From an uncultured Actinomycetes bacterium (GTDB lineage Bacteria; Actinomycetota; UBA4738; HRBIN12), in the NCBI GenBank assembly GCA_963823255.1, contig CAWGKU010000004.1, positions 35,112 to 99,111 on the forward strand: a stretch of 64,000 nucleotides of DNA, read 5' to 3'. Under the pieces are notes generated by a model, which did no database searches, had not been told where the DNA came from, and was given only the letters and a program-made list of their open reading frames with translations. Positions 19,260 to 64,000 of this stretch are shown here, piece after piece. The translations under genes were made by a program, and so were the position numbers. The stretch's first letter is position 1. Each line of letters starts with the position of its first letter.

Positions 19260-19270
19260 GCCGCGAGCGT

Positions 19271-38272: not shown

Positions 38273-38718
38273 CCCCGACGAAGAGCCCGAGCACACACGG
38301 TGCCCACCGGCTGACTCGCACGGAGGCACCCAAGCAGGTCGTGGTCTCGGCCGTGGCTCACCGTGACAGGCGGAGATCACGCGGACCCCTTCAGCTTGTT
38401 GAGAAGAGACCTGGGGATCACGCCGGGCCGCCGGGCGCACGCGGAGCCCGCGCCACACGACGAGCCTGCTGTGTAGTGCCGAACTGCTGATCGACTGCGA
38501 GGAGGACCGGACGCTCCGAGCGGTGCGGTCCGAAAAGCCGGTTGCGCAGCGACCAGCGTCAGGGTGGCCACGCCGTCAGTGTCCAAGAATGTTGCGACTG
38601 GCCTCCCGACGCTGGTCAGCCTCTTGCCCCTCACTCCTCGAGTCGGGCATACACGTGGCGTTCCGCGGCGTTAAGTAGCTAGGTCGTTCCATTCGGAAGT
38701 TGGACGGAGGTTGGACCG

Positions 38719-45775: not shown

Positions 45776-45783
45776 CGGGGCTC

Positions 45784-48609: not shown

Positions 48610-49024
48610 CGCTTCAACGAGGGTATTTCAAATCCGGTCTAGCCGGCAGGTCAACCTGGATCCGTTGTCGACAACGAACAGGAAGGGTTGAGGTAGTTCG
48701 TAGCGTCAGCGATGGGGGTGGGAAGTCGGCGCCCCGCGCGCGGCGTTGCACCGTTGATGGTGGGTCCGCGGCAACTGAGGGTTGCGCTGACGTTTCGTTG
48801 CGTCGGGCATGTACGGCCGGGTCGCCTTGGCCCGGTATCTCGCGGCATGATCTTGATCCCTCCCACGTACCCTTTGCGCGACCGCGTGTTCGCGCCGCAC
48901 GGCGAGCCGGTCGTGCAGCCGTTTCCAAGCTCGCGGACTTGCACGAGCGCGCAAGTGCCGTCGTGGTCCTCCGGGCTGAACTAGATACTGAGAGAAGCCT
49001 CCGTCGACTTCGAGATGTCTCTAC

Positions 49025-50047
49025 TCACCCGAGCAAAGGTGCGGTTCCCCAGCGAGGTGAGCTCTCCCATCGATGCGTCCGCGTCAGCGGCTTGAAGTGG
49101 TCGATACGCATGTGGTCGTCGAAGTGCCCGATCCAGACATCCGCGTTCCCTTTCCTACCGACGCCCGGGTAGACGCCGATCGTCATCCGGGTGCCGTCCG
49201 GCGAGAACGAGGACGACGTGAAGGAGAACTCGCGGCCCCCGTCGATGAGCACCCGGAACCCGCTGCCGTCGGGGTGGCTGAGGAACACCTGCTGCGTGCC
49301 GGGAGCCTCGTCGTTCCGGTAGATGATCCACCGCCCGTCCGGAGACCAATCTGGGGAGTCCCCCGCCAAGAGACCCTTCGGCGAGACGCGCTCGACGTCT
49401 GATCCGTCGGTGGAATCCGCCGTGAAGATCGCAGGCTTCCAGTCTCGGCGCGCCAGCCTGCGCTCGAAGACGATCCGGGTTCCGTCGGGAGACCACTGAG
49501 GATCGAAATCCTCTGATCGCTGGAACCCGGTCGGTTGGGTGATCTGGCGGAGCCCTGTGCCGTCGGGATGGATCGCCCAAATGCTGACGTCAGCGGATTG
49601 GTGGTTCGTCACCGGCCCCGTGGCGAGGCTGAAGGCGATCCACTGTCCATCGGGGGACCAGGATGCCAAGAGGGCCGCACGGCACACGTCGTCGCCGGGG
49701 CACGGGAAGAGTCGGTGCGGGTTCGACCCGTCGACGTTGACGACCCAGATCTCGTGCGTCTCGGACTCGGGCGTGAACGTGACCCTCTCGAAAGCGAGCT
49801 GACTCCCGTCGGGGGACCAGTTCTGCGTGTAGTCGAGCTGGTTCGGGGCCGGGAACGTTATCCGGGTCTCGTGACTCCCGTCCGGGTTGACGACGAACAG
49901 CGCCCCGTTCGTGTGCTTGTCGTTGAAGTACCGCCGGAACGAGATCAGCCCATTCTCGCCCGGAGCGGTGGCGTGCACCGGCGCCGCCACGAGCACCAGC
50001 GTGCACAGGGCCGTCGAAAGCGCGATTGCCCGCGAAAGATGCCTCAT
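49025..50047 (-). CDS. Secreted TolB-like / PD40 beta-propeller repeat protein
   Basis: Signal peptide MRHLSRAIALSTALCTLVLVAAPVHA. Repeated WSPDG motifs. Confidence 0.8.
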   Translation of the reverse strand: MRHLSRAIALSTALCTLVLVAAPVHATAPGENGLISFRRYFNDKHTNGALFVVNPDGSHETRITFPAPNQLDYTQNWSPDGSQLAFERVTFTPESETHEIWVVNVDGSNPHRLFPCPGDDVCRAALLASWSPDGQWIAFSLATGPVTNHQSADVSIWAIHPDGTGLRQITQPTGFQRSEDFDPQWSPDGTRIVFERRLARRDWKPAIFTADSTDGSDVERVSPKGLLAGDSPDWSPDGRWIIYRNDEAPGTQQVFLSHPDGSGFRVLIDGGREFSFTSSSFSPDGTRMTIGVYPGVGRKGNADVWIGHFDDHMRIDHFKPLTRTHRWESSPRWGTAPLLG

Positions 50048-50612
50048 CGATCCCCCTTCGCGGGCGCGCTAGTAGGGGCACGGACGCTACTACGTCGGTG
50101 ACTCCGGCGTGCGAGCCGGTCATCTCCCCCTCGAGGCGAACGCCTCCACTATTCGCGGCTGCGGCCCGACGAGGCGAACCTCGATGCTCCAGCGTGGGAT
50201 TCAGCGCGTCGCCGAGTTGGCCGCAAAGGCCGACGATCTCGTCGACGAGGCGATCGCGGTCGGGCACAGCCGTCCGATCCGCTCGTCGTCCACGCGCTCC
50301 GGCTGGAACTCCTCAAGGTGACGGCCGACCTCGAACGTGAACTCGGGACGTTTCTCGACACGCGGGTCCCGGCTCGCCACGGAGAGAGCAGCTTCCTGTC
50401 TCACCTGAAGAGCGACGGCGCGAGAGCCGCTCGATGGATCTATGAGCGGGTCTGGGGACCCGTCAATAGTCCGAATGGGTGATGGTCGGGTGGGCCGCGC
50501 CGTGCCGGTCCGTAGACCCATCGTGCGACATGACCGACGGCGCGCGCGATGGTACTTAATGCGTCTCCGAAGTCGAAGTGGTCTACGACGCCCACCAGGA
50601 GCCAACGGACCC

Positions 50613-51932
50613 ATGTCGATCATCGAACGTTCCGCCTCGCCACAGGCTCCGGCCGCCGGGTCGAAGCCGCGCGGCGGCCGGTTGCGCGTGATCACGGCGG
50701 GCAGCGTGGGCAACATGGAGGCTCGGCTCGGGACGAGTGGGTTCGACGTCGTCGCGGTCGCCGAGACGGAGGAGGCGCTGATCGATGCCGTGTCGGCGGA
50801 CGAGGCGGACGCGATCGTCGTCGAGGCCGACCTTTGCGACTCGCTCGAGCGCGTTCGAGATCTGGCACCCAATGCACTGCTCATCGTCATCGGCGATCAC
50901 ACGCCCGCCGGCGCGCTCGGTCGCATCGAGCCTGGTGTGTCAGGGACCGTGATGGCCGGGCTCCTGCACGCGCTGGTCGCCGAAGGCGTCGGGGGGGCCG
51001 TCGGGTGGGGGCTCGTGCCCGCGTTGGGACCGCGGGGCGTGCTGCAAGTTCCCCAGCGCATCAGCGGATGGCTGCTATCGGCCAAAGCGGATCTCGTCCG
51101 AGAGTACGTTGCGAACGCCTTTCGCGACCACGCGGAACTCCTTACCGCGGCGAGCACCGTCGCGGTGACCGTTTCCGCGAGCCTTGTGCTGACGCTGAGC
51201 GCAGCCCACACGCACGAACGTTCACACGAACGCTCGGAGCGCGTCCATGTTTCCGCGCCGGCCGTGGAGCGCGCGCCGCTGTATCCGGCCGTCGCTGTTT
51301 CCCCCACGACGCCAACACCCGCCTATGTTCCCTCCCAGAACGAGGGCGAGCCCGGCGACCGACGAGGGCTGAACCGCGGTGAGTCAGGAGCTGATGGTCG
51401 CCCAGTGGGCCAGGACGCCGACGATATGGGCCAGATCGAGAACGCTGGCGACGATCTGGGTCAGGTCGAGACCGCCGCCAACGATCTGGGCCAAGGCGAG
51501 AACGCCGGCGACGATCACGGCCAGGACGAGAACGCCGGCGCCGATCACGGCAAGAACGAGAACGCCGGCGACGATCACGGCCAGGGCGAGAACGCCGGCG
51601 ACGATCACGGGCAGGGCGAGAACGCCGGCGACGATCACGGCAAGAACGAGAACGCCGGCGACGATCACGGCAAGGGCGGCGACGATCAGGACGGCGACGT
51701 GAGCGAGGGTGACGACCAGGACGCTGGCGACCAGGACGGTGAGAACCAGGACGGTGAGAACCAGGACGGTGAGAACCAGGACGGTGAGAACCAGGACGGT
51801 GAGAACCAGGACGGTGAGAACCAGGACGGTGACGAGGAGGACGGTGACGACCAGGACGTCGCGGGGGATACAGCGACCGCCGCCGGGACCTCGGCGTCAA
51901 GTCCAGCGACTGGAGTCGCCCTGACCTACTAG
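50613..51932 (+). CDS. Receiver-like (pseudo-receiver) domain protein with long acidic low-complexity repeat tail
   Basis: N-terminus RLRVITAGSVGNMEARLGTSGFDVVAVAETEEALIDAVSADEADAIVVEADL is REC-like. The C-terminus has ~9 copies of (ENAGDDHGQG) and ~7 copies of (GENQD). Confidence 0.55.
   Translation: MSIIERSASPQAPAAGSKPRGGRLRVITAGSVGNMEARLGTSGFDVVAVAETEEALIDAVSADEADAIVVEADLCDSLERVRDLAPNALLIVIGDHTPAGALGRIEPGVSGTVMAGLLHALVAEGVGGAVGWGLVPALGPRGVLQVPQRISGWLLSAKADLVREYVANAFRDHAELLTAASTVAVTVSASLVLTLSAAHTHERSHERSERVHVSAPAVERAPLYPAVAVSPTTPTPAYVPSQNEGEPGDRRGLNRGESGADGRPVGQDADDMGQIENAGDDLGQVETAANDLGQGENAGDDHGQDENAGADHGKNENAGDDHGQGENAGDDHGQGENAGDDHGKNENAGDDHGKGGDDQDGDVSEGDDQDAGDQDGENQDGENQDGENQDGENQDGENQDGENQDGDEEDGDDQDVAGDTATAAGTSASSPATGVALTY
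51411..51684. repeat. 30-nt coding tandem repeat (~9 units, GACGATCACGGCCAGGGCGAGAACGCCGGC-like)
   Basis: Direct inspection. The units diverge at the edges. Confidence 0.8.
51733..51830. repeat. 15-nt coding tandem repeat (GACGGTGAGAACCAG x6-7)
   Basis: Direct inspection. Encodes DGENQ repeats. Confidence 0.85.
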
Positions 51933-52129
51933 CGTCCGGTCATGTCCTTCGAGGAGATGGGAGCAAGCGCTCCGCCACGCCTTAATGGATCAGTGGAGGA
52001 TCGAGCAGCCTTCGTTCGCATGAGGGTCGCCCAGTAGCCGGGCAACCCCTCGATCCGTCGGTCAGCCACCGGGATTCCAGGGCCCGTGGCCCGGCTTCTG
52101 GGACGTCAGGAACGGAACCAACAACCCGT

Positions 52130-52207
52130 GGCGTCGTGTTCGGCGACGCTTTTCGTGCCTACGCTACCCAGCCCTCTCGATCCGCCCCCAACACTCCTTG
52201 TGCGTAC
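52130..52207. repeat. Interspersed repeat copy (hairpin + TTTTCGTGCCT...CCCTCTCGATCCGCC + tail)
   Basis: Aligns with the copies at 53499, 55017, 55693 and 20004. Leading hairpin GCGTCGTGTTCGGCGACGC. Confidence 0.7.
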
Positions 52208-52409
52208 ACCGAATGGTGATGGGTCGTGTCAGATCAGCTTCATGGCGCAGATGGCAATGGGGTCGAGTAACGGGGTCGAGTAACGGGGTGCAAGTCCGAG
52301 GGCCAGGCACTGGGCGCACCGGGAGCCCACGCCGCACGGCGAACCGGCGGCCTAGACTCCGCAGGAGAATCTGCGATCCGTGCCCGCGTGACTAGCCGAG
52401 GAGGCCGTT

Positions 52410-53444
52410 CTGAGCGAGCGGGTCTGCCTCCGGTGTGACTGGACCGGCGAGACGGAAGCGGCCGTCTGTCCCAGGTGCGGGGCACCTCTATACGGACTCC
52501 CGGAACCGACGACTCCCCACGAGGTCACCCAAGCCCCCCACATGCAACGGCATCCGGCGGATGACCGCATGGACAGCTCGCCGATCGAGGCGGCCCGAGA
52601 CGAGAGCGTCCCACCTGCCGAGCCGGTCGCCGCCAGCAGGCGGTGGGCGGTGATCGTTGGTGCCCTCGCGGTGGCGGCGGTCTGGAACGTTGTGAGCCAC
52701 GGCCCGTTCGACCGCCTCCAGATGCCCGTCGTCCCGGGAGGGGCGCAGACAGGACCGACGGTCATCATGGGGTCGTTCTACCCCGAACAGGTGGGCGCCT
52801 CCGTTCTTCCACCCGAGGGGGCATCGCCGAGCGCTCCGGAGCGCGGAAAGCTCGTCGCGGGCAAGGAAGACATCTACGTCTACGCCGACGGGCGGATGAT
52901 CTGGGGTCGAGAGGGTTTGCCCGTCTGGCTCGAGCAACGCCTCACACCTGAGGGCGTCGAGCTCGTGCGTTCGGGTGCGGTACGGCTCGATGGTCAGTCC
53001 TTGGACCCCGGGTCGGCCCTGCCGGAAGGCGTGTTGGAGCCTCGGCTGATCGAGGCGTACGTCCCGTCAAGCTTCGCCGTCTGCCCCGGGCGCTGGCCTT
53101 GGAACACGGGATCGCCCGAACCGTCGTCCATCCTGGCCCATCTCCCGGTCCCGGCCCAGGCGTTGCTCCGAGGCAATGAACGGACGTACGACGCATCCGG
53201 GGGGGTGATCGGAGGCAACCCACCACGTCCATTCACATGCTTCGAGGTGACCACCGAGGAGGCTCGAGCACTCGACGGGATCTTCCGCGATGCGGGGATC
53301 GAACGGATCGACGAACTGGATAGCTCGACACCCTCGCAATGGGTCGTCTACGAGGTCAGGGCCACGGCCGCGATTCGCCGATCGTTCATCTCGATGATGC
53401 CGCTCCTCCCGCATGGAGAGTGGGGATTCTCGGACGCCGGATGA
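52410..53444 (+). CDS. Membrane-anchored hypothetical protein with N-terminal zinc-ribbon (start codon uncertain)
   Basis: The frame is open from 52392. CLRCDWTGETEAAVCPRCG lies upstream of the first ATG (52542). RBS GAGGAGG at 52397. One TM (WAVIVGALAVAAVWNVV), then a ~250-aa extracytoplasmic domain. Confidence 0.5.
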   Translation: MSERVCLRCDWTGETEAAVCPRCGAPLYGLPEPTTPHEVTQAPHMQRHPADDRMDSSPIEAARDESVPPAEPVAASRRWAVIVGALAVAAVWNVVSHGPFDRLQMPVVPGGAQTGPTVIMGSFYPEQVGASVLPPEGASPSAPERGKLVAGKEDIYVYADGRMIWGREGLPVWLEQRLTPEGVELVRSGAVRLDGQSLDPGSALPEGVLEPRLIEAYVPSSFAVCPGRWPWNTGSPEPSSILAHLPVPAQALLRGNERTYDASGGVIGGNPPRPFTCFEVTTEEARALDGIFRDAGIERIDELDSSTPSQWVVYEVRATAAIRRSFISMMPLLPHGEWGFSDAG

Positions 53445-53498
53445 GCGCCCACGGGTTCGAACGGCCCAGGTCGGCCGCGAGCCCGAGCAGTCCACCCC

Positions 53499-53576
53499 GC
53501 CGTCGCGTTCAGCGACGGTTTCCGTGCCTGCGCCACCCAACCCTCTCGATCCGCCCTCAACGCTCCTTATGCGTCG
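53499..53576. repeat. Interspersed repeat copy
   Basis: CCGTCGCGTTCAGCGACGG hairpin + TTTCCGTGCCTGCGCCACCCAACCCTCTCGATCCGCCCTCAACGCTCCTTATGCG. Confidence 0.7.
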
Positions 53577-53786
53577 ACCGAACAAGACGGGGTTAGCGGT
53601 CTTGAGATCACGTCCGTGCTACCGGGCGCACCGGATGCCCGCGCCGCATGGCGATCCGTCCAGTCGGGGTGGCGAAGTGTCTCGTCCCGCTTATCTGCTG
53701 CAGCTCAGGTCACTCCAGCTTCGTATCCGAGGGTCGGGCGTTGGACCCGTGGCGACCTCTAAGGCCCAGAGGTATGGTTCGCGGAA

Positions 53787-54098
53787 GTGGACGACCTGCC
53801 AGCAGCCGACATGGCCGAGCTGTGCCACGAGCACCAAGACTGCATCAAGGGGTTCAAGGCGACCGCGACTGGCGACCTTGCGCCGCTGGCGGGTTGGTGG
53901 CATTTCGTGTGGGACCAGGAAGACATGCAGTGGAACATCACTGATCCGACCGGCGAGAACGGCTATGTGGTCGTCCAATCTGTGGATGCGTCGTTCCCGC
54001 CCGCGGCTCTGATCGATGCGGCTCCTGGAATATTGCTCCAGCCGATCGTCTCCATCATCGAAGAAGAGGGCCTCTTCCCTCCGATACGCCGCTCCTAG
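53787..54098 (+). CDS. Hypothetical protein
   Basis: 103 aa, protein-like composition (WWHFVWDQEDMQWNITDPTGENGYVVVQ). No known domain. Confidence 0.35.
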   Translation: MDDLPAADMAELCHEHQDCIKGFKATATGDLAPLAGWWHFVWDQEDMQWNITDPTGENGYVVVQSVDASFPPAALIDAAPGILLQPIVSIIEEEGLFPPIRRS

Positions 54099-54232
54099 CG
54101 CCAGGAGCCTCCTCGTCGCGATTTCGATGCTGGAATGAACCGGACCTGGGACCCGACCGTATTCCCAGTCGCGAACACGCGAGTGAAGAGCGTCGGCCGG
54201 GCTCGAGAGCCCCTGCCCTGAAGAGAACGAAG

Positions 54233-54769
54233 ATGAAGTCATCGACAAGAACGGCCCGCCGGGTCTGGATCGCCTCTGCGGTCGCGCTGATCGCGTTGTC
54301 CGCCTGCGCCAAGAACGCCGCCCCCAGCTCAGAAGGCGGCAGTTCCACGAGTACACACGCGGGCTCGGTCATCATCGGAACGAAGTCGGTTCCCGGGGCT
54401 GGCACCGTGCTCGTGGACTCGAGCGGATCGACGCTGTACGAGTTGGCATCTGAAACCGGTGGAACGATCATGTGCACCGGCTCGTGCGCCACGACGTGGC
54501 CACCCTTGCTCCTGCCGGTCGGCGTGAGCTCGGCAACCGCGGGAAACGGAGTCAGCGCGAGCGAGCTGGGCACGATCTCGCGACCCGACGGAGGCACGCA
54601 GGTCACGTACGCGGGGATGCCGCTGTACTTGTTCGTCAGCGACCACGACCCGGGACAGGCAACCGGCCAGGGGGTTGAAGGATTCCACACGGCCACTCTC
54701 TCGGGCTCCGGCTCAATGAGCGGGGCCAGCGGGAGCAGCGGGGGCCGGTACGGGTACGGGAGCGGGTAA
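54233..54769 (+). CDS. COG4315-family predicted lipoprotein (secreted repeat, Lipoprotein_15-like)
   Basis: Lipobox LSAC. Two repeats of the G..LVDS.G.TLY...D...G...C.G.CA..WPP and PLYLFVSDHDPGQATGQGVEGFH patterns. Confidence 0.75.
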   Translation: MKSSTRTARRVWIASAVALIALSACAKNAAPSSEGGSSTSTHAGSVIIGTKSVPGAGTVLVDSSGSTLYELASETGGTIMCTGSCATTWPPLLLPVGVSSATAGNGVSASELGTISRPDGGTQVTYAGMPLYLFVSDHDPGQATGQGVEGFHTATLSGSGSMSGASGSSGGRYGYGSG

Positions 54770-55016
54770 TTCGGGGCCTCAAACCAGCAACATGCCGAAG
54801 ATCACTGCCGAACGGGCAATCTGGTGGATCCACGACTCCGAATCGGGACTTGGCGCTGCCTTCATGACGAGAGGCAGGCAGCGAAACGACTGAAGCGAGG
54901 TCGAAGGGGGGTGGTACCGCTTGAACGGTGCTGCCCCTCGCCAACCAACAAGACTTCACCGCGGGCTCGGGGCACCGCCGCTTGGGAGTTCAGGAAGTCG
55001 TCCAAGCCGACATGTC

Positions 55017-55080
55017 TAGCGACGCATTTCGTGCCTGCGCTTCCCAGCCCTCTCGATCCGCCCTCAACGCTCCTGATGCG
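55017..55080. repeat. Interspersed repeat copy
   Basis: GACGCATTTCGTGCCTGCGCTTCCCAGCCCTCTCGATCCGCCCTCAACGCTCCTGATGCG. Confidence 0.7.
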
Positions 55081-55207
55081 AAGAGTCCACGCCCATGAGC
55101 CGCCGGGGCATGACCACCTCTTCATCCCCCCCGGATGATGCACCGCTCATGCCCTTGCGCTCGAATGGCATGAGGGTTCGGCCCTGGGTAGGAAGGCTGG
55201 TGGCGAC

Positions 55208-55618
55208 ATGATCTGGGCGATTCTCGTGCTGCTCGGGGTCCCGCTGTGGGTGTGTGCAATCGGCATCCTCGTGATCGCGTTCGGCAACCGCAAGCTACGG
55301 AAGCGCCACGGCGACATCCCGGTCCGCGTGAGGCTCCCCGGGAAGAACCGATGGACCCGAGGGCACGCGATCTGGGTGTCGGACGTGTTCGCGTGGCGGG
55401 GTAGCCCCGCCGCCTGGGACGAGGATCTCGAACGGATCTCCGACGTGACGATGCGGAGCCCCGACCCTGAGGAACGCAAGAAGCTGCACCACCTCGGTGA
55501 GGGGTTCGTGATCGCGACGCTTTCGATGAAGGACGGCGAGGCCCTCGACGTGGCCGCCGGACCGGATGACAGCTCCGCGCTCCTCGGACCCTTCGAACCC
55601 AAGATGCAGCTGGCATAA
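55208..55618 (+). CDS. DUF2550-family membrane protein
   Basis: N-terminal TM, then RVRLPGKNRWTRGHAIWVSDVFAWRGSPAAW...ISDVTMRSPDPEERKKL, matching the DUF2550 pattern. Confidence 0.6.
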   Translation: MIWAILVLLGVPLWVCAIGILVIAFGNRKLRKRHGDIPVRVRLPGKNRWTRGHAIWVSDVFAWRGSPAAWDEDLERISDVTMRSPDPEERKKLHHLGEGFVIATLSMKDGEALDVAAGPDDSSALLGPFEPKMQLA

Positions 55619-55692
55619 CGGCCCAGACCGCACGTGAGGGCTCGGAGAGGCTTCGCACGAGAGGCGTGATAGCGCGCCGCACGTCGAGCCAG

Positions 55693-55783
55693 TGCGTCGC
55701 TTCCAGCGACGGTTTCCGTGCCTGCCTCCCCAGCCCTCTCGATCCGCCGATCGTCCTCCACGTAGACGACACACGGTCCTTGC
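55693..55783. repeat. Interspersed repeat copy (5' module + spacer + GACACACGGTCC core)
   Basis: GCGTCGCTTCCAGCGACGG hairpin + TTTCCGTGCCTGCCTCCCCAGCCCTCTCGATCCGCCGATCGTCCTCCACGTAGACGACACACGGTCC. Confidence 0.7.
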
Positions 55784-55914
55784 GCTTCGGTGTCACCAGT
55801 CTCCCAAACCTGCGCTGCGTAGCACTCCGGGATGCTCGTGAACCGAGAGCCCGCGCCGAATCGACAAGCGAACGCCCCGGCTGGAACGGCCAGGGCGATC
55901 CGCAGTCGCTTGGT

Positions 55915-56304
55915 TCAGCGGCGTTGGTGGCGGTCGTAGAAGCTCGCCGGGAGCCCGTCGCTGATGATCCAGTTGGTCACGAGCTTGTTACTGATGAGCT
56001 TGTGTGTCTTGATCCCGAGCTCCAGCCGGGCTTGGGCGTTCAGTTCGCTTGGTGTGTTCGCTGTGCCGCCGAGCGTCTGCTCGGCCCCGCCCACGATCCC
56101 GGCGTTCAGCTCGCTCGGGGTGTTGACCTCGCTCGGCGTGTTGACCAGCTGACGGCCGACGGACGTTGTCTGACCCCGCTGCCCTTGGTCGACCGAGATG
56201 GCGACCACGCCGATGGTCAGCATGACGAACGACGCGAGGAACGTAGCGAGCAAGATGGAACCGCCCGCCCTAGGCGCCTGCTGCGTTCCGACCCTGGTGC
56301 TCAT
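55915..56304 (-). CDS. Membrane-anchored hypothetical protein with NTPSE(L/V)N repeats
   Basis: One TM (ILLATFLASFVMLTIGVVAI). Three NTPSEVN/NTPSELN repeats. Confidence 0.45.
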   Translation of the reverse strand: MSTRVGTQQAPRAGGSILLATFLASFVMLTIGVVAISVDQGQRGQTTSVGRQLVNTPSEVNTPSELNAGIVGGAEQTLGGTANTPSELNAQARLELGIKTHKLISNKLVTNWIISDGLPASFYDRHQRR

Positions 56305-56585
56305 CGTTCCCTCCCTTCGGCTCTGTCACTTGGATACGTCTCGAGTGGACCGTAGACCGGGCACTCTGGCGGGTCGGTGCTTCGAAGCACCTGGTTGAGG
56401 TGACCTCGCTCACTGGCGGCTTGAAGGCCCGACGGGGGCGCCGGGGGACGATCGACGAACAGCGCATACAGGCTGCACGCCGCGTCAGCGCCCGTGAGAC
56501 GGGCGACGGAGTCGACGAGCATCGCGCTCTGGCCGACCACGCAGTCGGGTTCGGGCCGTGCTCGGCTGCCGCGGATCCGGGTCGG

Positions 56586-59500
56586 TTACTGGACCCAGAG
56601 GCGACTGAGCAGGATCCCCCATTGAGGGTGGACCTGGACGTTTTCCACGCGTGCCGAGACGGCGAGCGTGGAGACCGGGTTATCCACGGGGGCCACGATC
56701 GCGTCCTCGACGAGCTGGTGATCGAGATCCGTCCACGCGCTGTTCGCGGCCGCCGGATCGGTCTCCTGGAGCCGGAGGGCGTGCTTGAACATGGCGTTCA
56801 GACTCTCGCTGCAAAAGCCCGAGTAGGGGCCCCACCGGCGCTCCGCACCAGACCTTTGGCGTTGATGAAATCGCTGGCGATCGGGTAGGTCGAGATCCAG
56901 CCGCCAAGGTATGCCTGCGCCTCGCCCGCTGTCGATCGCCGCGAACTACTGGTCGATCGTGTCCACGATCTTCAGGTTCGCTCGCAGGCCGAGATCGTTC
57001 AGGACCTCGATGACGTACCGCATGACCTCGACCTCCGCTCGGGGAAGACCGAGGGTGTCGGCATCCATACGGTGACCTTCTCCCCCATGACTCCGGCGTC
57101 CTCGATCAGGGCATGCGCTCGATCGAGATCCGGGGCGGACCACACACCGCTGTCCGGCTCAAGGGTGTATGGGCAGAACGGCTCGTAGCCCTGGAAGTTC
57201 GGCGGGAGCATCTGGCACGTCGGACGATGGCTCGAGGGGCCGCCGTGCAGCTCGACCACATGATCTCGATCGATCGCGTAGTTCAGAGCCTGCCGCACCC
57301 GAACGTCGTCGAACGGTGGCGTGAGAGACGTTGAACCCGACCCAGGAGGTGCCGCAATCGGCCAGGGCACGACCTGATCGGGGTGCTCTGCCTGGAGCGA
57401 TGCCAGGTCCTGCGGCCGCGGCACGTCGGTCATCCAGTCGAGCTCGCCCGCGCTGAGCCGATCGAAGGCGTTCGCGGGGTCCTGTCCGAACCGCCACGAG
57501 ATCGCGTCCACGAAGCCATCGGGCTGGGCCGCGCCCGACCACTCGCGGAACTCAGGGTTCCGCACCAACTCGACGCCGTCGGCGCCGGCCTCCGCGATCA
57601 TGTACGGCCCCGTCGCCGGTACGGGCTCGAGACCCTGGTCCTCGGCCGGGATCTCGACGGGGACCGGGTAGGTCACGGGCAGCGCGAGCTTGTAGGGCAG
57701 GTCGGGATCCGGCCGCACGAGGTGGAACGTCACCGCCTCGGCGTCGGCGACGATCGATCCGGAGAGATCGCATGTGGACGGCTCCGCGATGCAGGCCTCC
57801 GCACCGTCGATCGTGCTTGAACAGGTGGCGGCCTCCGCGGCGATCGCGAGAAATCGCTCCACGGCGTGCCGGAAGTCCTCGGGGCGCACGGGTTCCCCGG
57901 TCGAGTAGCTGATCCCCTGGCGAAGCGGGAACCGATAGGTGAGTCCATCGGCGGATATCTCGGGGAGCGTCGAGGCGAGGTCCGGGACCAACGTCGCGCC
58001 TCCGGGCCTCCGACCTTCTCGTAGGACAGGAGCCCGTCGTTCGTGATCGCCAGGATCTGCCCCGCGAGGGTGTCGTTGAATACAACGATCGCGGGGTCGA
58101 GCGACTTCGGAGCTCCTCTGCTCAGACGAGACGGTCAGGGTGCCGCCGCGGTGCTCTGCGGCCGATGCTCCGACGGCGAGCCACAGGCCATTACCCTCGG
58201 TCGCCAGCGAAGCCGCCGTCCCGCCGACGGGGATCGCCTGCCCGACGTCGTTCGTGCCTGGGTCGATCGCACTGATCGTGTCATCGAACTCGTTGGCGAC
58301 CCACACGGAGCCCGCCACGTCCACGAGCGCGTTCGGGCCCTCACCGAGCCCGATGATCGTGTCCTGGATATCTCCGCTCGATGGATCCAGCCGCATCACG
58401 GTGTTGTCGAGGTGGTTCGAGACCCAGATGGAGTCGAAGGCCGCGTCCACTGCAGTTGGACCGTTGCCCACCGACTGCGTCAGCGTCACGCTCACGTCGG
58501 TCGGATCGACACGCGCCACCCCGTTCGGCGCGATACGAGACCCAGACGCCGTGGGAAGTGAACGCCACGCCGGAGGGCTGTCCGGCTAACGGGACGGACC
58601 GCGTCTCACCCGAGGTCGGATCGATGCGTAGCAGCACAGCCCCTACCGAGTCGGCGACCCAAAGCGCGCCGTCGCCGAACGCGATCCCCATCGGGACCGA
58701 ACCGGCGGGGAGGGTCTGACTGACCTCGTTGGTACCGACGTTGATCCGGCGCACCGTGCCATCGCCGGCATTGGTGACCCATACCGCCCCGGCACCGATC
58801 GCGATGCCCGAAGGAGAGGCGCCCACCGGGATCGTGTCGGTGACCGAACCGTCCTCCAGGTCCAGGCGTGCGACGACGTCACGGTCCGGCTCGGCGACCC
58901 ATACGCTCCCGAAGCCGATCGCGCTCGCACCGGGGCGCTGCCCCAGAGGCGTGGCGAAGTCGAGGCTCCCCTCCTCGGCGTTCATCCGCGCGATCGAGTT
59001 CGTCCCGACATCGACGGCCTCGCCGCCATCGGACCCGAGCAGCGGGATGGCGATCGCGACGAGCGCCAAGACAACGGCGATCCCGACGACGACCGGCCAG
59101 CGCCGTGAGGTCCTCCGCCCCGCGGGAAGGGGTGGCGGCGCGAAGGGGCGCAGCCGCTCGACGGGGTCCTCGCCCTCAGGCACGACGCGGACGACCACGA
59201 TGGGTTCGTCCAGTCCTTTAAGCAACAAGGGACCGCGGTCCTCGTACCGGACGCCATCCACCCGTCGCGCCAGGTGCGTGACTTCCCGCGAGGCGAGGAT
59301 CTCGCCGGCCCGGGCCTCGCCACAGAGCCGGGCCGCGAGGTTCAGGGCTCCGCCCCGGTAGCCACCCTGGACCGCAACCGCCTCGCCCGCGTCCAGGCCG
59401 ATCCCGAACGTGAGCGGCAGCTCCGGCTCCCGGAGCGTCTCCTGCACGAACCGCCGCTGGAGGTCTACCGCGGCGCGGATCGACTCCCGGGTTGAGGAGA

Positions 59501-59768
59501 ATACGCACACCGCTTCGTCCCCACGTAGCTCGAGCAGCGTGCCCCCGCGCGCCTCGACCCCTTCGCGCGCGATGTCGGCGAACTTGGCCGCAAGCTTGGC
59601 CGCGGCCTCGTCGCCACGCTCTTGCGTGAACCGGGTCCACCCGCGCATGTCGGCGATGAGGAACGTCCGGATGTGGACGTCCTCGGTGCTTTCGGTTTGG
59701 CCTTGGAGCGGCCGATCCTCATGGACCACGGGTGAGTATGCGCTTACGTGATGATGGGTTGTAGCCAC
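56586..59768 (-). CDS. Class III adenylate/guanylate cyclase - TM - YVTN beta-propeller - family-5 solute-binding (SBP_bac_5) fusion; multiple apparent frameshifts
   Basis: N-terminal cyclase (VHIRTFLIADMRGWTRFT...GIGLDAGEAV). TM (WPVVVGIAVVLALVAIAIPLL). Propeller repeats (VWVTNAGDGTVRRINVGTNEV..., NTVMRLDPSSGDIQD). SBP5 (GGTLTV...LVPDLASTLPEISADGLTYRF...). The SBP5 C-terminus (...HPQWGILLSRLWVQ) is in a separate frame. Frame changes occur near 58400, 58085, 58010 and 56800-57000. Confidence 0.55.
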
Positions 59769-59896
59769 CCGCGATGGTGGGCTCTCAGAGAGCCAGCGGG
59801 CCGCTGCCGTTACGCTGGTCTGCCTGTACCACTTTCGACCCCCGGCCCTTCCTATCCTTCATGTGCGGGGCCACTCAAACAGAGGGTGCCGCAGGC

Positions 59897-59988
59897 TCCG
59901 ATCCATCGATCCGTGCGCCAACTGACGCGACACACGGTCTCGTGCCTGGGTTGTTGTTTCGATTCACGACACACGGTTCGCTGCCTCG
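59897..59988. repeat. MIRU-like interspersed repeat, long-form copy 2
   Basis: ~88% identical to 4652..4740 (GATCCATCGAT...CGCCAACTGACGCGACACACGGTCTCGTGCCTG...GACACACGGTTCGCTGCCTCG). Confidence 0.75.
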
Positions 59989-60006
59989 AATATCTTGTTG
60001 GTAGCG

Positions 60007-60450
60007 TCAGCCCGCGATCGGGAACGGCCCATGCGGCACGAACGCTGGCGAGATTCGCCTGCCGTCCTCCGTGGAGAGGTCGGACACGGGGAACGCCTCG
60101 TCATCGGCGAGCCGGCGGAGGTCGGTCACCTCCGAGTAGATCGCCCACTTCTCCTCGCCCTGGGTCGATTTCGGCCGATGCCGCTCGGATCTGACCGAGT
60201 TCAATCGGACCCTCCGGCGGCTCATGCCCCGTCTCCTCCTCGAACTCGCGCCGGGCGACGACCGCAGGTCCTCGCCTGCGTCCACCTCGCACTTGAGCAC
60301 GGTCCAGCGATCTGCCTCCTTCCCGGCGAAGTACGGACCCCCTGGGTGACCGAGCAGCACCGCCAGGCGACCCTCCCTCGTGCGCCACAACAGGATGCCG
60401 GCGCTGGTGCGGCCCTGCTTGTCGACCTTCGGCTTTCGGACGCGCGCCAC
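60007..60450 (-). CDS. NUDIX hydrolase, apparent frameshift(s)
   Basis: SAGILLWRTREGRLAVLLGHPGGPYFAGKEADRWTVLKCEVDAGEDL in one frame. The Nudix box (RREFEEETGHEPPEGPIELGQIR) is in another frame (ORF 60101..60388). GTG start at 60450. Confidence 0.55.
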   Translation of the reverse strand: MARVRKPKVDKQGRTSAGILLWRTREGRLAVLLGHPGGPYFAGKEADRWTVLKCEVDAGEDLRSSPGASSRRRRGMSRRRVRLNSVRSERHRPKSTQGEEKWAIYSEVTDLRRLADDEAFPVSDLSTEDGRRISPAFVPHGPFPIAG

Positions 60451-60479
60451 CGGTGTTCGCCGGAACCGAGAACGCGCGC

Positions 60480-60857
60480 TCAGGCCCTGGACGTGACGCG
60501 AGCCTTGACGATCGCCCGGATCGTGAGCAGCGCGACGACGGCGACGAACTGGGCTCCCAGGATGACCTTGTTGAGATCGACGGCGGGCCGCCACGTCACC
60601 TCGTCGCCCTTGATGAGGAACGCCCCGACCGGCCGGGCGTTGAGGCCGAAACCGCTGCCCGAGCCCTTGCCCTGACCCTCGGGACCCTCGCCGCCTCCCC
60701 CACCTGCGCCGCCCTGGACCCTGGCGGCCGGGATCACCGTCACCCCGTTCTTCTCGTACGGGTCGCCGAACACACGCTTCACGGAGAGCGTGTCACGGGC
60801 CTGCGTGATGACGTCGTTGACCTCCATCACGGCCTCCTTCCCATGTCCTCTTTTCAT
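60480..60857 (-). CDS. GerW/YtfJ-family sporulation-associated protein
   Basis: FGDPYEKNGVTVIPAARVQGGAGGGGGEG...GFGLNARPVGAFLIKGDEVTWRPAVD matches the GerW family pattern. Confidence 0.75.
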   Translation of the reverse strand: MKRGHGKEAVMEVNDVITQARDTLSVKRVFGDPYEKNGVTVIPAARVQGGAGGGGGEGPEGQGKGSGSGFGLNARPVGAFLIKGDEVTWRPAVDLNKVILGAQFVAVVALLTIRAIVKARVTSRA

Positions 60858-61075
60858 CCATCTTGCTCCTTCGACGACGAATTGGCTTGCCCGGCCGCCT
60901 CGGCCCGTTGCCGGTGCTCGAGTCAGCTCGATGATGATGCCGAGCTCGAAGACCTGGTGCGCGCATCAAACCTCAAGCGTCAGACGCAAGCGGGACCTTG
61001 TCCTGCGTCTCCTCGAACAAGCGATCTTTGGCCCCGAGCACGACGGGGCGGACCTGTAGGCCGGGCTGTCCGCGA

Positions 61076-61555
61076 TTACGTGCGATCCGGTCCTCGACGG
61101 AAGACGCTGATGACGACCCCGGCCAGCCCGGTAAGCACGGTCGCGGCAGTCGGGGCGAAGAACGCCGCCATCGGCAGCTCGGTCGGGTCGCTGCCAGTCT
61201 CGACAACGGGCAGGGTGATGCTGAGGACTGTCGCCAAGCCCCACAGAACCAGCGTGACGACGGAGAGCCCGATCCAGGTGGATCGCCAGGTGGCGTCGCC
61301 GCGGAGCTTGCCCATCGCCCACAAGAAGATCGCGGTCCCGATCCCGCTCCAGAACCAGGTGCCGAACGCGGCGACGGGGAGGTGCTCATGCTCAGAGCCC
61401 GACACGAGATCGGGAGCGAACACGCTGATCAACACGACGGCGACCCAGATCCCGCTGATCCCGAGGGAGGTCCACAGCATCCAGAAGCCGTCGGCCGTCT
61501 CGGCCCGCCGCTGCTCCGACGACACCCCGTTTCCGGTCACCGTCATCGCTGACAC
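61076..61555 (-). CDS. Hypothetical membrane protein (4 TM)
   Basis: 159 aa. Trp-rich TM helices. Confidence 0.55.
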   Translation of the reverse strand: MSAMTVTGNGVSSEQRRAETADGFWMLWTSLGISGIWVAVVLISVFAPDLVSGSEHEHLPVAAFGTWFWSGIGTAIFLWAMGKLRGDATWRSTWIGLSVVTLVLWGLATVLSITLPVVETGSDPTELPMAAFFAPTAATVLTGLAGVVISVFRRGPDRT

Positions 61556-61641
61556 AGCCTAGTCGACGAGCACCGGAGCCTCCCACCGGCCCCGGCAACC
61601 GACACTCGGCCCGGCCGAGACGGGACTGTCGACCCCCCTCG

Positions 61642-62190
61642 TTGGCCGCTCACGCGGCGACGATGGGTGCCATGAACTCGCGACCGCTCTTCGTCGCAGA
61701 GCGGCTCGCCGTCCGCGCCGTCCCCGCCGGGCTGTTCCTGTGGGCTGGCCTCGGCAAGGTGTTCGACCGGCAGGAGTCGATCCTCGCGGTTGACGCGTAC
61801 CAGGTCCTGCCCGACGCCATGGTCCGCATCGTGGCGTCGCTCCTCCCGTGGATCGAGATCGGCGTCGGGGTCCTCCTCCTCTTGGGCCTGTTCGTCCGGT
61901 TCGCGGGCATCGCCACGGCCGTACTCGCATCCGTATTTATCGTCGCACTCGTGCAAGCGAAAGCGCGCGGTCTGGCGATCGACTGCGGGTGCTTCGGAGG
62001 CGGCGGCGCGGGAGACGGCGTGACCTGGTGGGACGTCGCCCGGGACATCCCAATCGTCATCGCTGGGATCTACCTGGCCCGACGACCGGTGGGGCCGCTG
62101 CAGCTCGACAACCTTCTCGGAGTGATGGAGGACCATGATGGTGAAGACCGCGGATCGAACCAAACGCGAACGTCGGCTCGAGCGGGCTGA
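61642..62190 (+). CDS. MauE/DoxX-family redox-associated membrane protein
   Basis: AIDCGCFGGGG motif typical of MauE. 4 TM. Confidence 0.7.
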   Translation: MAAHAATMGAMNSRPLFVAERLAVRAVPAGLFLWAGLGKVFDRQESILAVDAYQVLPDAMVRIVASLLPWIEIGVGVLLLLGLFVRFAGIATAVLASVFIVALVQAKARGLAIDCGCFGGGGAGDGVTWWDVARDIPIVIAGIYLARRPVGPLQLDNLLGVMEDHDGEDRGSNQTRTSARAG

Positions 62191-62800
62191 GGCGAAGGCC
62201 GCGGCCAGACGGCGTCTCGAACGCCGGAAGCAGCTCGGGTGGATGCTCGGAGTGGTCGCCGTCGCGGGCGCGATCGCGATCGGCGTCGTCGCCTTCCTCG
62301 GTGGGAGTGGCAACCCGGGGGCGGGTCCGTCCGATCGAGCGGCGGTCGTGGCCGCGGGTCCGGCACGTTCGGAACCGCTCGCCCGTGGGGACACTGTCCC
62401 GAACTTCTCGGCACCGGGTCTACACGGGGGAACGGTCTCGTGGGAAGCCTTCTCGAACCAACCGACGGTGCTCGCCGTTTGGGCGCCCTGGTGCCCACAC
62501 TGCCAGGTGGAGCTTCCGATCCTGGATAGGGTCATGCGTGATCACCCGGGGGTCGGATTCGTCACGCTCGTGACGGCGGTGGGAGATCGTCCCGGCCCGA
62601 CGCCGGAGGCGTACATGGCCGACCACGGCCTCTCGTTCCCCGTCGCCGTGGACGACGACCAGGGAACCATCGCCAGCGCGCTCGGGGTACCGGGGTTCCC
62701 GTTGCTCTACTTCGTCGACTCCGATGGCACGGTCAGGTTCGCAGCCTCGGGCGAGGTCGACGAGGCCACACTGATCGATGCGATCTCGAGCCTCTCCTGA
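62135..62800 (+). CDS. TlpA-like membrane-anchored thioredoxin (thiol:disulfide oxidoreductase)
   Basis: N-terminal TM. WAPWCPHC redox motif. Overlaps the MauE 3' end by ~56 nt. Confidence 0.8.
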   Translation: MMVKTADRTKRERRLERAEAKAAARRRLERRKQLGWMLGVVAVAGAIAIGVVAFLGGSGNPGAGPSDRAAVVAAGPARSEPLARGDTVPNFSAPGLHGGTVSWEAFSNQPTVLAVWAPWCPHCQVELPILDRVMRDHPGVGFVTLVTAVGDRPGPTPEAYMADHGLSFPVAVDDDQGTIASALGVPGFPLLYFVDSDGTVRFAASGEVDEATLIDAISSLS

Positions 62801-62880
62801 GTTGGAGAATCTCGAATGGCGCTGCGAGTCATGGTCGAGGAGGATCGGCTGGCGCTGAACGACGGGAGACTCGCTTAGCG

Positions 62881-62910
62881 CCTCGACTCATGACACACGG
62901 TTCGCTGCAC
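62881..62910. repeat. Interspersed repeat, short form (CCTCGACTCATGACACACGGTTCGCTGCAC)
   Basis: Matches 19271..19300 and the 3' module of the long-form copies. Confidence 0.6.
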
Positions 62911-63072
62911 TCAGAGTCTCCCTCATCGACGAAGGCAGACAAGTCGAGACCGCCCTCCTGAGCACGTATGTGAACCATGTCCGACCGTTGATCGCTACGG
63001 ACACCTTCGTCATCGATCTCCTCTCGGTCGACGTTCGCTACCCTCGCGCGATCGACATGACAACGGATGGTG

Positions 63073-64000
63073 TCAGCGTGTTACACGGAAGAGAGCGACG
63101 GGCTCTGGTATGCCCTCGAAGTACGCATCCTCGATCCGCTCGAGCGCGAACGGCGCGACCTCGGAGGAGACGGCGTCGGCGACCGCCTCGCTCGTCAGAA
63201 CGTCTCCGGCTTCGGCAACGTCCGCGATCCGCGACGCCAGATTCACCGTCTGCCCGAAGACGTCAAGGTCGCGTTCGATGACGGGTCCGGCGTGGACGCC
63301 GGCGTGCGACGAGAGCGCACCCTCGCGGCTCATCGCCTCCACGAGTTCGACGGCGGCGGACACGCCTGCGGCGGGATCCGATAAGCGGAGCATCGCGCCG
63401 TCCCCGAGAAGCTTGATCAAGCGGCCTCCGTGCCTGCTGGCCGCCTCGTCGGCGCGGCGCTGGAGCGAGGTGGCGGCGCGGACGGCGGTTTCGTCGCCAC
63501 GCTCTCGAGTGAGACGGGTGAAACCGGACAGATCGACGAAGACGATCGCCGGCGGGCCAAGCGGGGCGGGGAGTCGCGCCAGCCCACGGGAGGCTAGGAA
63601 GCGCTCGAACCCTTCGACGATCCCGTCGACACTGCGGTGTTCGAGGTATCTCGCCGCAAGCCACGTGAACATCTCGGGCGCCAGGCTGATCGCATGTGTG
63701 AACGTGACGCGGACATCGTCAGGGAACCGCTCGAGCTCCCCGCGCAGCAATCGCTCCCTGGCGGGCCGCGCAAGCTGCTCGTCGAGAAGCTCCATCCATC
63801 CCAGCAGCGCCATCCGCGTCCCCTGCGCCATCAGTCGGGCGGCGCGAAGCAGCGAGTCTTCGTCCGGCGCTTGACGCCATGCGTCGAGGTAGCGTTCGAA
63901 CATCGTCTCCTCGTCGACGTGGATGGTGGTCGATGGATCCGGCGTGGGTAGACCCAGCACCTCGTAAACGGCGGGGAGGAGTTCGGCCCTCGGTCCGGCG
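63073..64000 (-). CDS. Class III adenylate/guanylate cyclase domain protein (5' end probably beyond window)
   Basis: C-terminal cyclase domain (IVFVDLSGFTRLTRERGDETAV...LLGDGAMLRLSDP...GVHAGPVIERDLDVFGQTVNLASRIA). The frame stays open upstream of the GTG at 63960 to the window end. Confidence 0.7.
   Translation of the reverse strand, partial: AGPRAELLPAVYEVLGLPTPDPSTTIHVDEETMFERYLDAWRQAPDEDSLLRAARLMAQGTRMALLGWMELLDEQLARPARERLLRGELERFPDDVRVTFTHAISLAPEMFTWLAARYLEHRSVDGIVEGFERFLASRGLARLPAPLGPPAIVFVDLSGFTRLTRERGDETAVRAATSLQRRADEAASRHGGRLIKLLGDGAMLRLSDPAAGVSAAVELVEAMSREGALSSHAGVHAGPVIERDLDVFGQTVNLASRIADVAEAGDVLTSEAVADAVSSEVAPFALERIEDAYFEGIPEPVALFRVTR

Follow-up and report, generated by a model that had tools for sequence, protein, structure and literature searches.

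What kind of element is the short repeat that recurs between the genes of an uncultured Actinomycetes bacterium? The DNA that raises this question is a stretch of 64,000 nucleotides on contig CAWGKU010000004.1 (called the window below, at its full length), in which one long copy of the repeat lies at 59894-59996. A first-pass annotation had likened the repeat to mycobacterial interspersed repetitive units (MIRUs) and had hinted at a terminator or attenuator function. Our results show that the repeat is a real, modular and dispersed intergenic family, and that it behaves more like a recombination joint than like a MIRU or a terminator. The most telling properties of the family, both absent from the first-pass annotation, are its strand polarity and the coincidence of its core with breakpoints between strains. 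We tentatively read the copies, with slightly less than even confidence, as sites of one common orientation at which a trans-acting system of site-specific recombination or nicking exchanges gene modules. The family, its anatomy, its polarity and the positions of the breakpoints are observed directly, and from them we infer that a dedicated enzyme made the breakpoints, and also which enzyme this might be.

The window has a G+C content of 65-71% and a GC skew that is flat throughout, so that no replication strand can be derived from it. Its gene set is typical of Actinomycetota, with mycothiol-type MDMPI/DinB proteins, an F420H2-dependent quinone reductase and many cyclase/STAND regulators. Genes were mapped with our own codon-usage model (34 on the plus strand and 27 on the minus strand, in mixed order), and Pfam was used to check selected open reading frames (ORFs). 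Copies of the repeat were detected by repeat finding, nhmmer and all-against-all BLAST of the intergenic DNA. The comparison data are all metagenomic, and the sequences are labelled L0xx here. Assemblies of soil metagenomes contain near-identical DNA (ENA ERZ250394xx-ERZ250395xx, Logan runs and JGI rhizosphere samples), and three metagenome-assembled genomes (MAGs) of Actinomycetota contain related DNA. A scan of a genome collection gave only three matches.

Every copy listed in the first-pass annotation was recovered at or within a few bases of its position by repeat finding, nhmmer and BLAST, far beyond chance. The annotation had counted at least 11 copies; we count 12 sites in the window, which belong to a single mosaic family and lie without exception on the plus strand, the twelfth and newly added site being at 29786-29826. 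The long forms at 4654-4741 and 59899-59988 indeed form a pair, with an identity of 85.6% over 90 nt (E 1.6e-24) in place of the roughly 88% estimated before, and nhmmer finds them at E 1e-31 and 1e-33. The short forms, weak as plain sequence matches, are found by nhmmer at 19268-19298 and 62855-62909 (E 3e-4 and 2e-5), and the B copies at 52126-52214, 53498-53582, 55002-55087, 55689-55768 and 19984-20058 (E 1e-17 to 1e-23). The B copies show pairwise identities of 82-91% over 44-82 nt (n=5). A covariance model of the core (R1) was trained on 30 non-redundant sites, taken partly from the window and partly from outside loci, with all window sites except 19269 and 20047 in the training set, and its E-values are rough. 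At E<0.01 it matches nine core units in the window, including the two outside the training set, of which 19269-19308 is found at E 1e-7. The two copies at 7085 and 14544, which had been described as core-only fragments, exist but are complete core units; they are weak by hidden Markov model (E 0.02-0.04) and score E 1e-8 and 1e-5 with the core model, in whose training set both were included.

The 5' half of form A is significantly similar to the right arm of the B2 form (none of 2000 shuffles reaches the score), and a metagenomic long form in L005 joins a B2-type first half to an A-type second half; a single modular family is therefore justified. As the first-pass annotation had proposed, the family is also dispersed. 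Related copies occur at unrelated loci of other Actinomycetota MAGs and on many soil metagenome contigs (L001, L002, L004, L006, L008-L010 and L016), so that the family is not confined to the window, and the identities lie at 82-92%, not below about 70%.

The common unit of these sites is about 38 nt long and consists of box2 (TCGATYMAY, or (C)TCGATYC in the form in which the piece recurs) followed by a 27-nt imperfect inverted repeat, which has a left arm (box1, GACACRCGG), a 9-nt spacer and a degenerate right arm (YCGNGNGTC) that nearly always ends in GTC. The unit is an arm-spacer-arm inverted repeat of the size of a repetitive extragenic palindromic (REP) sequence, with one conserved arm and one loose arm. 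The spacer is TTCGCTNCN in A-type sites and TCCCCANNN or TCCTTGCGC elsewhere. The longer A and B forms add accessory arms, namely extra copies of box1 and box2, a C-rich left arm (TTTCCGTGCCTGC..CCCAACC) and a small GC hairpin, the 3' arm of which resembles box1 in the B copies. The ~38-nt core unit is carried by 9 of the 12 window sites, while the three B1 copies (52126, 53498 and 55002) are without the GACACACGG core and have no more than the left arm and box2 in common with the other members of the family.

Only a register-specific test reveals the inverted repeat, and general hairpin-stability z-scores are near 0. In 17 of 24 unique copies, box1 has its best complement at an offset of exactly 9 nt, and the mean pairing between box1 and the far arm is 6.7 of 9 positions versus 5.2 of 9 in random window sequence (P<5e-5). 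In register, 69-78% of the cells are paired versus 21-52% with the register slid, and an unselected alignment gives 69% versus 25-49%. In alignment A1, the sequence win19281 was padded by one base to hold the register. Relative to box1, positions from about -11 to +26 have a high information content, which is zero beyond +26. The core alignments show no covariation beyond sequence conservation, because box1 hardly varies. G.T wobble pairs are in excess of A.C pairs (13 versus 4), a hint that the plus strand is the folding strand.

The copies differ in how many of these parts they carry. The core unit at 7077-7117 reads TTCGTAATC, with box1 at 7089-7097, the spacer TCCCCACCG and the far arm to 7115, and the unit at 14516-14575, which has a B2-like spacer and lies 130 nt past a plus-strand gene ending at 14386, reads TTCGATCC..CTCGATAGACG, with box1 at 14547-14555 and the far arm to 14573. 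The two short forms are at 19269-19308 (TCTCGATCAAT, box1 19281-19289, an 8-nt spacer and the far arm CCGTGAGTC) and at 62880-62920 (CTCGACTCAT, box1 62892-62900, far arm CTCAGAGTC). The site new to the list spans 29770-29826 (TTCGTGCCCGC.., then CCTCGATCAC, box1 29798-29806 and the far arm CCGCGAGTC), and its right flank matches a site in L040. A B2-type copy without the left hairpin lies at 19969-20107, 5' of an M20 peptidase gene, with a left arm (..CTCCGTGCCTGCGCCACCCAACC), box2 at 20029-20036, a spacer, a degenerate box1 (GACACGATC) and the tail GTCGAAGGTCCAGTTACGACGCC; the core model matches it at 20047-20085 with E 0.0015. The full B2 copy at 55689-55796 has its hairpin at 55695-55711, a left arm, box2 at 55738-55745, a spacer and the core at 55768-55794. 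The B1 copy at 52126-52214 has the hairpin CGTCGT-GTTCG-GCGACG, then TTTTCGTGCCTACGC.., box2 at 52176-52183 and a diverged right arm with no core; that at 53484-53582, 54 nt past a stop at 53444, has the hairpin CGTCGC-GTTCA-GCGACG, the left arm, box2 at 53545-53552 and a diverged right arm; and that at 55002-55087 has a degenerate hairpin and box2 at 55052-55059. On the minus strand, 5077-5107 is a putative fragment of the B2 spacer, 84% complementary to 55738-55768 (BLAST E 7e-4, nhmmer E 0.23), a marginal match that may be due to chance. Its minus-strand translation VYVEDDRRIE resembles the reverse translation of B2 (VYVDPERRIEL), and this match is at the DNA level only. An inverted repeat of 9 bp (GGGAGACTC..GAGTCTCCC, window 62868-62924) surrounds the short form at 62880 and is found around no other copy.

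The polarity of the family is strict. In the window, the motif GACAC[ACG]CGGT occurs nine times on the plus strand and not at all on the minus strand, and the core-model matches with E<0.01 are distributed in the same way (9 and 0). In five further contigs, oriented by the modules that they share with the window, box1 occurs 18 times on the plus strand and 0 times on the minus strand. All sites are intergenic in the codon-usage gene map, in agreement with the first-pass annotation, and their position relative to stop codons is close to what it had described, with small corrections: copy 4650, which was thought to span the TGA of the upstream gene, abuts this TGA (4647-4649) instead, and the copy at 19269, given as starting 12 nt past a stop, does lie close behind the stop of the second ABC-transporter gene, at a distance of about 10 nt.

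The element could also act at the RNA level, as a co-transcribed gene-end element that stays with the transcription unit of its gene and serves at the 3' end of the mRNA as a hairpin or stabiliser, or else loads Rho at a C-rich (rut) site. In line with such a role, 10 of 11 sites have a plus-strand gene directly upstream, 0-230 nt past its stop (P 0.04), as have most outside loci; the plus strand of the elements is C-rich and G-poor (C 0.32-0.44, G 0.20-0.29); the B forms begin with a GC hairpin followed by TTT; and the G.T wobble pairs favour the plus strand. However, the co-oriented copies occupy 10 of 28 gaps that lie 3' of plus-strand genes versus 0 of 21 gaps that lie 3' of minus-strand genes (P 0.003), which argues against a general gene-end signal. 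By gap type, 7 sites are in ++ gaps, 3 in +-, 1 in -- and none in -+. The copy at 59894 lies between two minus-strand genes, and L002 has two copies that are both antisense to every surrounding gene. Since the gene orientation is mixed and such antisense copies exist, the polarity belongs to the chromosome or the array and not to the genes.

The structural tests for an RNA element also gave nothing that supports the terminator or attenuator suggested before. No canonical terminator was detected at the copies in the scanned intervals 51800-56400 and 19100-20400; the T run behind the B hairpin is 3-4 nt long at most, and the core has no T run. Folding energies do not differ from those of shuffled sequences (z -0.1 to -1.6). 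No Rfam family matches the element at gathering score across the window, or at E<=5 in 51900-56000 and 59700-63100, and the covariation test gave the result described above. Moreover, one would expect a terminator to be transferred with its hairpin intact, whereas the far arm differs among strains. We consider an RNA-level gene-end element improbable.

The main new evidence comes from the comparison of strains. Contigs were gathered by looking up the exact DinB-like protein encoded at 4212-4649 and its neighbouring proteins. The first long form A (4650-4749) follows directly 3' of the TGA of this gene and comprises box2 (CTCGATCC, 4652-4659), an internal box1 (4684-4692), a second box2 (4711-4720) and the core inverted repeat at 4721-4747 (box1 4721-4729, spacer 4730-4738, far arm 4739-4747). 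As far as the end of form A, more than 15 contigs agree at 98-100% identity, and past ..GACACACGGTTCGCT they follow six continuations. The first, as in the window, leads into a PHO4 gene (eight or more contigs); the second into a 186-nt stretch and then window position 13124 (L007, L014 and L029, from three independent datasets); the third into a cyclase gene (L003); the fourth to window position 7104, with the PHO4 and PhoU_div genes removed (L026); and the fifth into DNA resembling window 28760 (L041). The sixth (L018) has the window's own sequence except for another 20-nt far arm, which recurs behind another element in L021. The breakpoint in the window is 4735|4736. In L031, the only filled/empty comparison, the element is missing entirely, with the joint within box2 and no duplication.

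Two modules are delimited in this way. The gene module 713-4735 contains MDMPI, KKA-repeat HC2-like, ANTAR, STAS and DinB-like genes together with the long form A; as a block of 97-100% identity, it has at least five left neighbours and at least six right neighbours. The PHO4/PhoU_div module at 4736-7103 starts with ACATCGGCGGTC, ends in ..GACACACGGTCCCCA, has core units at both bounds and is absent in L026. The core unit at 7077-7117 forms its right boundary, with the breakpoint 7103|7104 in L026, which is also exactly where contig L036 ends. Logan contigs of this block end at elements in three cases (L024, L036 and L037), one of them exactly at ..GGTCCCCA. At the left end of module 713, L040, L042/L005, L043 and L044 share the 80 nt leading into 713 and, before these, box1 and CCCCA, while their left contexts are four unrelated ones right up to box1; the window represents a fifth context, without an element. 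The sequence common to all four joints is only ~15 nt and contains single-nucleotide polymorphisms (SNPs), which is too short for ordinary homologous recombination.

A third comparison gives the same picture at the other end of the window. L021 is 99.3-99.6% identical to the window over 45020-55794 (10.6 kb) and 59966-62847 (2.9 kb), and between these the 4.2 kb at 55787-59967 are replaced in L021 by 5.96 kb of different or diverged DNA. The joints lie at 55786|55787, within the B2 copy at 55689, and at the box1 at 59966/59968; the identity stops after GACACACGGTCCTTGCGCT and resumes at CGACACACG. The second long form A (59894-59996) has box2 at 59905-59912, an internal box1 at 59929-59937, TCGATTCAC at 59959-59967 and the core at 59968-59994, and there the orthology with L021, L005, L011, L013 and L042 resumes at 59959/59966 behind three different left contexts. 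In L021, the replaced segment holds a gene for an nSTAND1-WD40 protein of 1604 aa.

Of the ~17 placed breakpoints, about half coincide with elements, which cover ~1.5% of the window. The switch takes place at or just before box1, or ~15 nt past the start of box1, within the spacer, while the conservation of the family continues to +26. In L026, the joint lies beyond the stretch shared by the two window copies, and a TTCGCT site there carries the flank of a TCCCCA site.

These properties are what led us to favour, tentatively, the exchange of gene modules at dedicated sites. Each module would carry an element at its 3' end, and the exchange that accompanies the excision, loss, insertion or replacement of a module would occur in or next to the spacer. 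The upstream module would retain box2, box1 and the first part of the spacer, and the far arm would arrive with the downstream module. The enzyme would be site-specific and encoded in trans, possibly a tyrosine recombinase with the 9-9-9 inverted repeat as its core-type site, or alternatively an HUH nickase or Y1 transposase that would cut the loop of the plus-strand hairpin. The arrangement of arm, spacer and arm is that of a tyrosine-recombinase core site; read as a plus-strand hairpin, with a 9-bp stem, a 9-nt loop and the joint in the loop, the core resembles HUH nick sites to the same degree. Because recombination between direct repeats excises or integrates and never inverts, all sites would keep one direction after shuffling. 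The ~15 nt of shared sequence and the L026 joint beyond the shared stretch speak for a process that is specific to a site or structure and against RecA-type recombination.

Several observations weigh against this reading. A joint at the right edge of a conserved stretch is also expected from repeat recombination or slippage, and the joint positions vary, some being in box2 (L031, and L001 versus the window). The spacers differ among sites (TTCGCT, TCCCCA and TCCTTGCGC), which is a poor fit to a tyrosine recombinase that needs identical overlap regions, and the B1 copies are without the core. Many rearrangements lie off the elements (window 713, 2341|3788, 2359|4116, 5424, 50245|50431 and 62842|62848), and plain microhomology deletions unrelated to the elements occur in these strains. 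With a site spacing of 0.7 kb to 22 kb, there is no tidy cassette array. The strict short-form pattern occurs just once in each of two related MAGs, and the comparison set consists mostly of metagenome contigs of unverified sequencing technology. Finally, no recombinase, transposase or HUH gene was found by Pfam on ~40 ORFs, which comprised most of the larger ORFs of the window and ORFs of the fetched outside loci, or in the Pfam annotation that the pipeline gives for fetched loci.

Part of this evidence would fit the main rival reading, a selfish REP-, BIME- (bacterial interspersed mosaic element) or MITE-like (miniature inverted-repeat transposable element) repeat that plays no part in module exchange, spread by transposition through, for example, a REP-associated tyrosine transposase (RAYT) or an IS200-type Y1 transposase encoded elsewhere. 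The breakpoints would then be a passive by-product of short-homology recombination, replication slippage or template switching between direct, hairpin-forming repeats. The size, the imperfect palindrome, the extragenic position mostly 3' of genes and the mosaic make-up are traits of REPs and BIMEs (PMC3733652, PMC2817692), copies at unrelated loci are 82-92% alike, and L031 indicates polymorphism for presence and absence. The microhomology deletions common in the lineage, with GATCG and TCGA at the joints, make repeat-mediated deletion plausible, the joints at the right edge of the shared sequence would be the trace of such events, and the polarity fits single-strand transposition into the lagging-strand template (PMC6006769). 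On the other hand, some joints share only ~15 nt with SNPs, and yet there are at least five left and at least six right contexts among strains that are 97-100% identical. The L026 joint lies past the stretch common to the two window copies. No inverted pairs occur here, while head-to-tail REP dimers are rare or absent in the genomes surveyed (PMC3733652); outside a stem, neither a GTAG nor a CGTC tag is present; and next to a nearly invariant near arm stands a degenerate far arm. We therefore regard a purely selfish repeat as possible, though on the unlikely side.

The module shuffling could also be an artefact, in which metagenome contigs that are chimeric through joining at short repeats, or paralogous copies of the same modules within one genome, are mistaken for strain variants; this would leave the reality of the repeat family untouched. 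The comparison sequences are all metagenomic, the three Logan contigs mentioned above break at elements, and sample ERZ25039532 has two contigs with the same MDMPI protein in different contexts. In contrast, the shared stretches of 15-36 nt are far below assembler k-mer sizes such as k141, and the configurations recur across projects: two JGI samples and a Logan run have the 13124 joint, the context of L042 is present in ENA as well as JGI data, and the PHO4 joint in eight or more contigs. Several of the contigs are 7-266 kb long. An artefact of this kind is quite improbable.

The comparison with MIRUs, from which the first-pass annotation started, does not hold. The repeat is an intergenic repeat of an actinobacterial host, it exists in length variants, and its copies are usually co-oriented with their neighbours and mostly with the upstream gene, all of which recall MIRUs. 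However, MIRUs are head-to-tail variable-number tandem repeat units of 46-101 bp with an ORF that overlaps the neighbouring stop and start codons, neither of which is seen here. Tandem Repeats Finder detects no tandem array at 4500-4900 or 59750-60150, even at score 30, and the two box1/box2 units within form A are too diverged and too unevenly spaced for one. No small ORF bridges the neighbouring genes: the next plus-strand gene starts 485 nt past copy 4650, and there is no consistent frame across copies. The copies are dispersed single units, and one is antisense to its neighbours. A MIRU-type minisatellite is thus extremely improbable.

A MITE in the classical form is not supported either. 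No terminal inverted repeats join the two ends of any copy, the local inverted repeats being internal hairpins only, and the flanks of the copies have no common direct repeat that would indicate a target-site duplication. A coding role was rejected on the six-frame translations, which show no consistent frame and in one copy a stop, and a search for sigma-70 promoter consensus gave nothing beyond chance. Tandem gene duplication as a source of the B copies was rejected because the intervening genes are unrelated. The short-form and B2 patterns are absent from IMG/VR, which speaks against a phage attP; the window has no tRNA genes and the GGTTCG motif is unlike a T-arm, which speaks against a tRNA-derived origin; and dif/Xer sites and integron attC were rejected on sequence grounds. 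A literature search by the sequence words of the element returned unrelated primers only.

Among known systems, the element looks most like a REP and works most like an integron cassette array, and it fits the definition of neither. Like REPs and BIMEs, it is an imperfect palindrome of 20-40 nt (9-9-9 here) that is extragenic, lies mostly downstream of genes in tandem or convergent gaps and forms mosaics with short motifs, and REPs are known rearrangement hotspots (PMC3733652, PMC2817692, PMC3333891). It differs from them in that all copies, in the window and in the five oriented contigs, are head-to-tail and never form inverted pairs (REP doublets forming hairpins, REPINs). It also has no unpaired GTAG/CGTC tag, the 5' flank of the core being TCGATYMAY and CGTC occurring only within the B hairpin stem, and it is the near arm and the spacer that are conserved and the far arm that is degenerate. 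No RAYT gene was found in the fetched loci, and a 2013 survey of REPs makes no mention of Actinobacteria (PMC3733652).

As in integrons, the sites are all co-oriented, each is at the 3' end of the gene or genes that travel with it and sometimes touches the stop codon, strains differ by whole units, and the exchange point is inside an imperfect inverted repeat, the last part of the site coming from the next unit. The array-like region at 52-56 kb, in which unrelated small single genes stand in a row and each is followed by a B copy, also recalls a cassette array and counts in favour of the exchange reading. In contrast to attC, there are no R'' (RYYYAAC) and R' (GTTRRRY) boxes, the core reading GGTTCGCT with GTTCGCT instead of GTTRRRY; the joint is after TTCGCT and not at G|TT; ACCCAAC is present in only 2 of 5 B copies; and the core is 27 nt long as compared with 57-141 nt. 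Unlike integron cassettes, the modules are up to several kb long with genes on both strands, and gaps of 7-22 kb separate some sites. Neither intI, attI nor Pc was found; the integrase was sought by Pfam in most of the larger ORFs of the window and in the fetched loci, and it could lie beyond the window. To our knowledge, integrons have not been described in Actinobacteria. It is possible, if rather doubtful, that an integron-like module exchange exists in Actinomycetota with an unrelated ~38-nt site (TCGATYMAY followed by GACACRCGG-N9-YCGNGNGTC) and a recombinase or HUH nickase that would act in trans. Such a new exchange system would resemble an integron in its co-oriented sites at the 3' ends of modules, in excision and re-integration and in the hybrid sites left by an exchange, and it would move ordinary multi-gene chromosomal modules, not single promoterless cassettes.

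Arm-spacer-arm core sites of recombinases are also found in the pdif modules of Acinetobacter plasmids, which have Xer sites, and in the sfx sites of shufflons, in which one arm is conserved. There, too, short core sites bound gene modules that occur in different contexts. However, pdif sites are inversely oriented and dif-like, shufflons invert and do not exchange, and neither resembles the present core in sequence. With HUH nick sites, namely the ends of IS200/IS605 and derived MITEs, the ends of IS91 and Helitrons, and rolling-circle Rep origins, the element shares strand specificity, the lack of terminal inverted repeats and target duplications, a stem of ~9 bp and a conserved loop of ~9 nt with the joint in the loop, and the B2 copies have a hairpin near each end. 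IS200/IS605-type elements have the lagging-strand template as their target, and the polarity observed here could reflect such single-strand chemistry (PMC6006769). The differences are that no HUH gene or TnpA and no conserved target tetranucleotide were found and that the mobilised units are ordinary chromosomal genes. We file the family as polar REP-like or att-like intergenic repeats.

If a dedicated mechanism is at work, it would bring about rapid change of gene order and gene content in an abundant, uncultured soil lineage, and the defined DNA site of ~38 nt would be a handle for finding the enzyme. Should the element be no more than a passive REP-like repeat, it would still be a new family with an unusually strict one-way orientation, useful as a marker for strain typing and breakpoints and a reason for caution in metagenome assembly.

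Some further observations concern the genes and repeats around the elements. Adenylate/guanylate-cyclase genes and AAA/TPR (STAND-type) regulator genes are strikingly frequent beside the elements and within the variable segments (window 8536-11385, 42812-45895, 58341-59768 and 63073-63960; L003 77-1411; L011 54-1250; L040; L041). A second, unrelated intergenic repeat, family C (..GGGCGCACCGGGAGCCCACGCCGCACGGCGAACCGG), occurs at 52309-52346, 53606-53658, 38416-38467, 48881-48910 and about 13095-13115, and in L005 at 6118-6160; it lies ~100 nt downstream of two B1 copies and upstream of plus-strand genes. Palindromes just past plus-strand genes at 14417-14448, 12640-12694 and 24859-24898 (32 nt at 100%, 56 nt at 82% and 40 nt at 90%) are likely ordinary terminator hairpins; that at 14417-14448 is kept in L007, where the synteny ends right behind it.

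Within module 713, two deletions remove the ANTAR and STAS genes, 2342-3787 (joint 2341|3788 in L003, L026, L030 and L040) and 2360-4115 (joint 2359|4116 in L007/L014), and neither joint is at a repeat element. At 1969-2257, a minus-strand gene contains ~14-19 tandem copies of the 15-nt unit GCCGTGGCCTTCTTG, which encode a lysine/alanine-rich repeat; the copy number varies among strains, BLAST alignments break there, and the homologue in L042 is annotated as HC2/DUF1918 (histone-like). At 62818-62880, compared with L021 19397-20290, ~840 nt were lost from the window through GATCG microhomology, and the result is a fusion ORF of 20 codons that joins the start of a CsoR-like repressor gene to the end of another gene. 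A 185-nt stretch (50246-50430) is absent from L021, with TCGA microhomology at the joint, and lies upstream or at the start of the ORF at 50442-51932, which has tandem repeats of 15 and 30 nt at 51386-51884 that encode an acidic tail of GENQD/GDDH repeats, and whose protein has no Pfam match. The second half of the NUDIX-like minus-strand ORF at 60007-60594 is arginine-rich and implausible, and the minus-strand ORFs 56999-58519 and 58341-59768 overlap by 179 nt; both cases suggest frameshifts, pseudogenes or assembly errors. An SAM-I/IV riboswitch aptamer at 25865-25986 on the plus strand scores 57 bits, above the Rfam gathering score, and lies in a 1-kb gap 5' of the ORF at 26098-26553.

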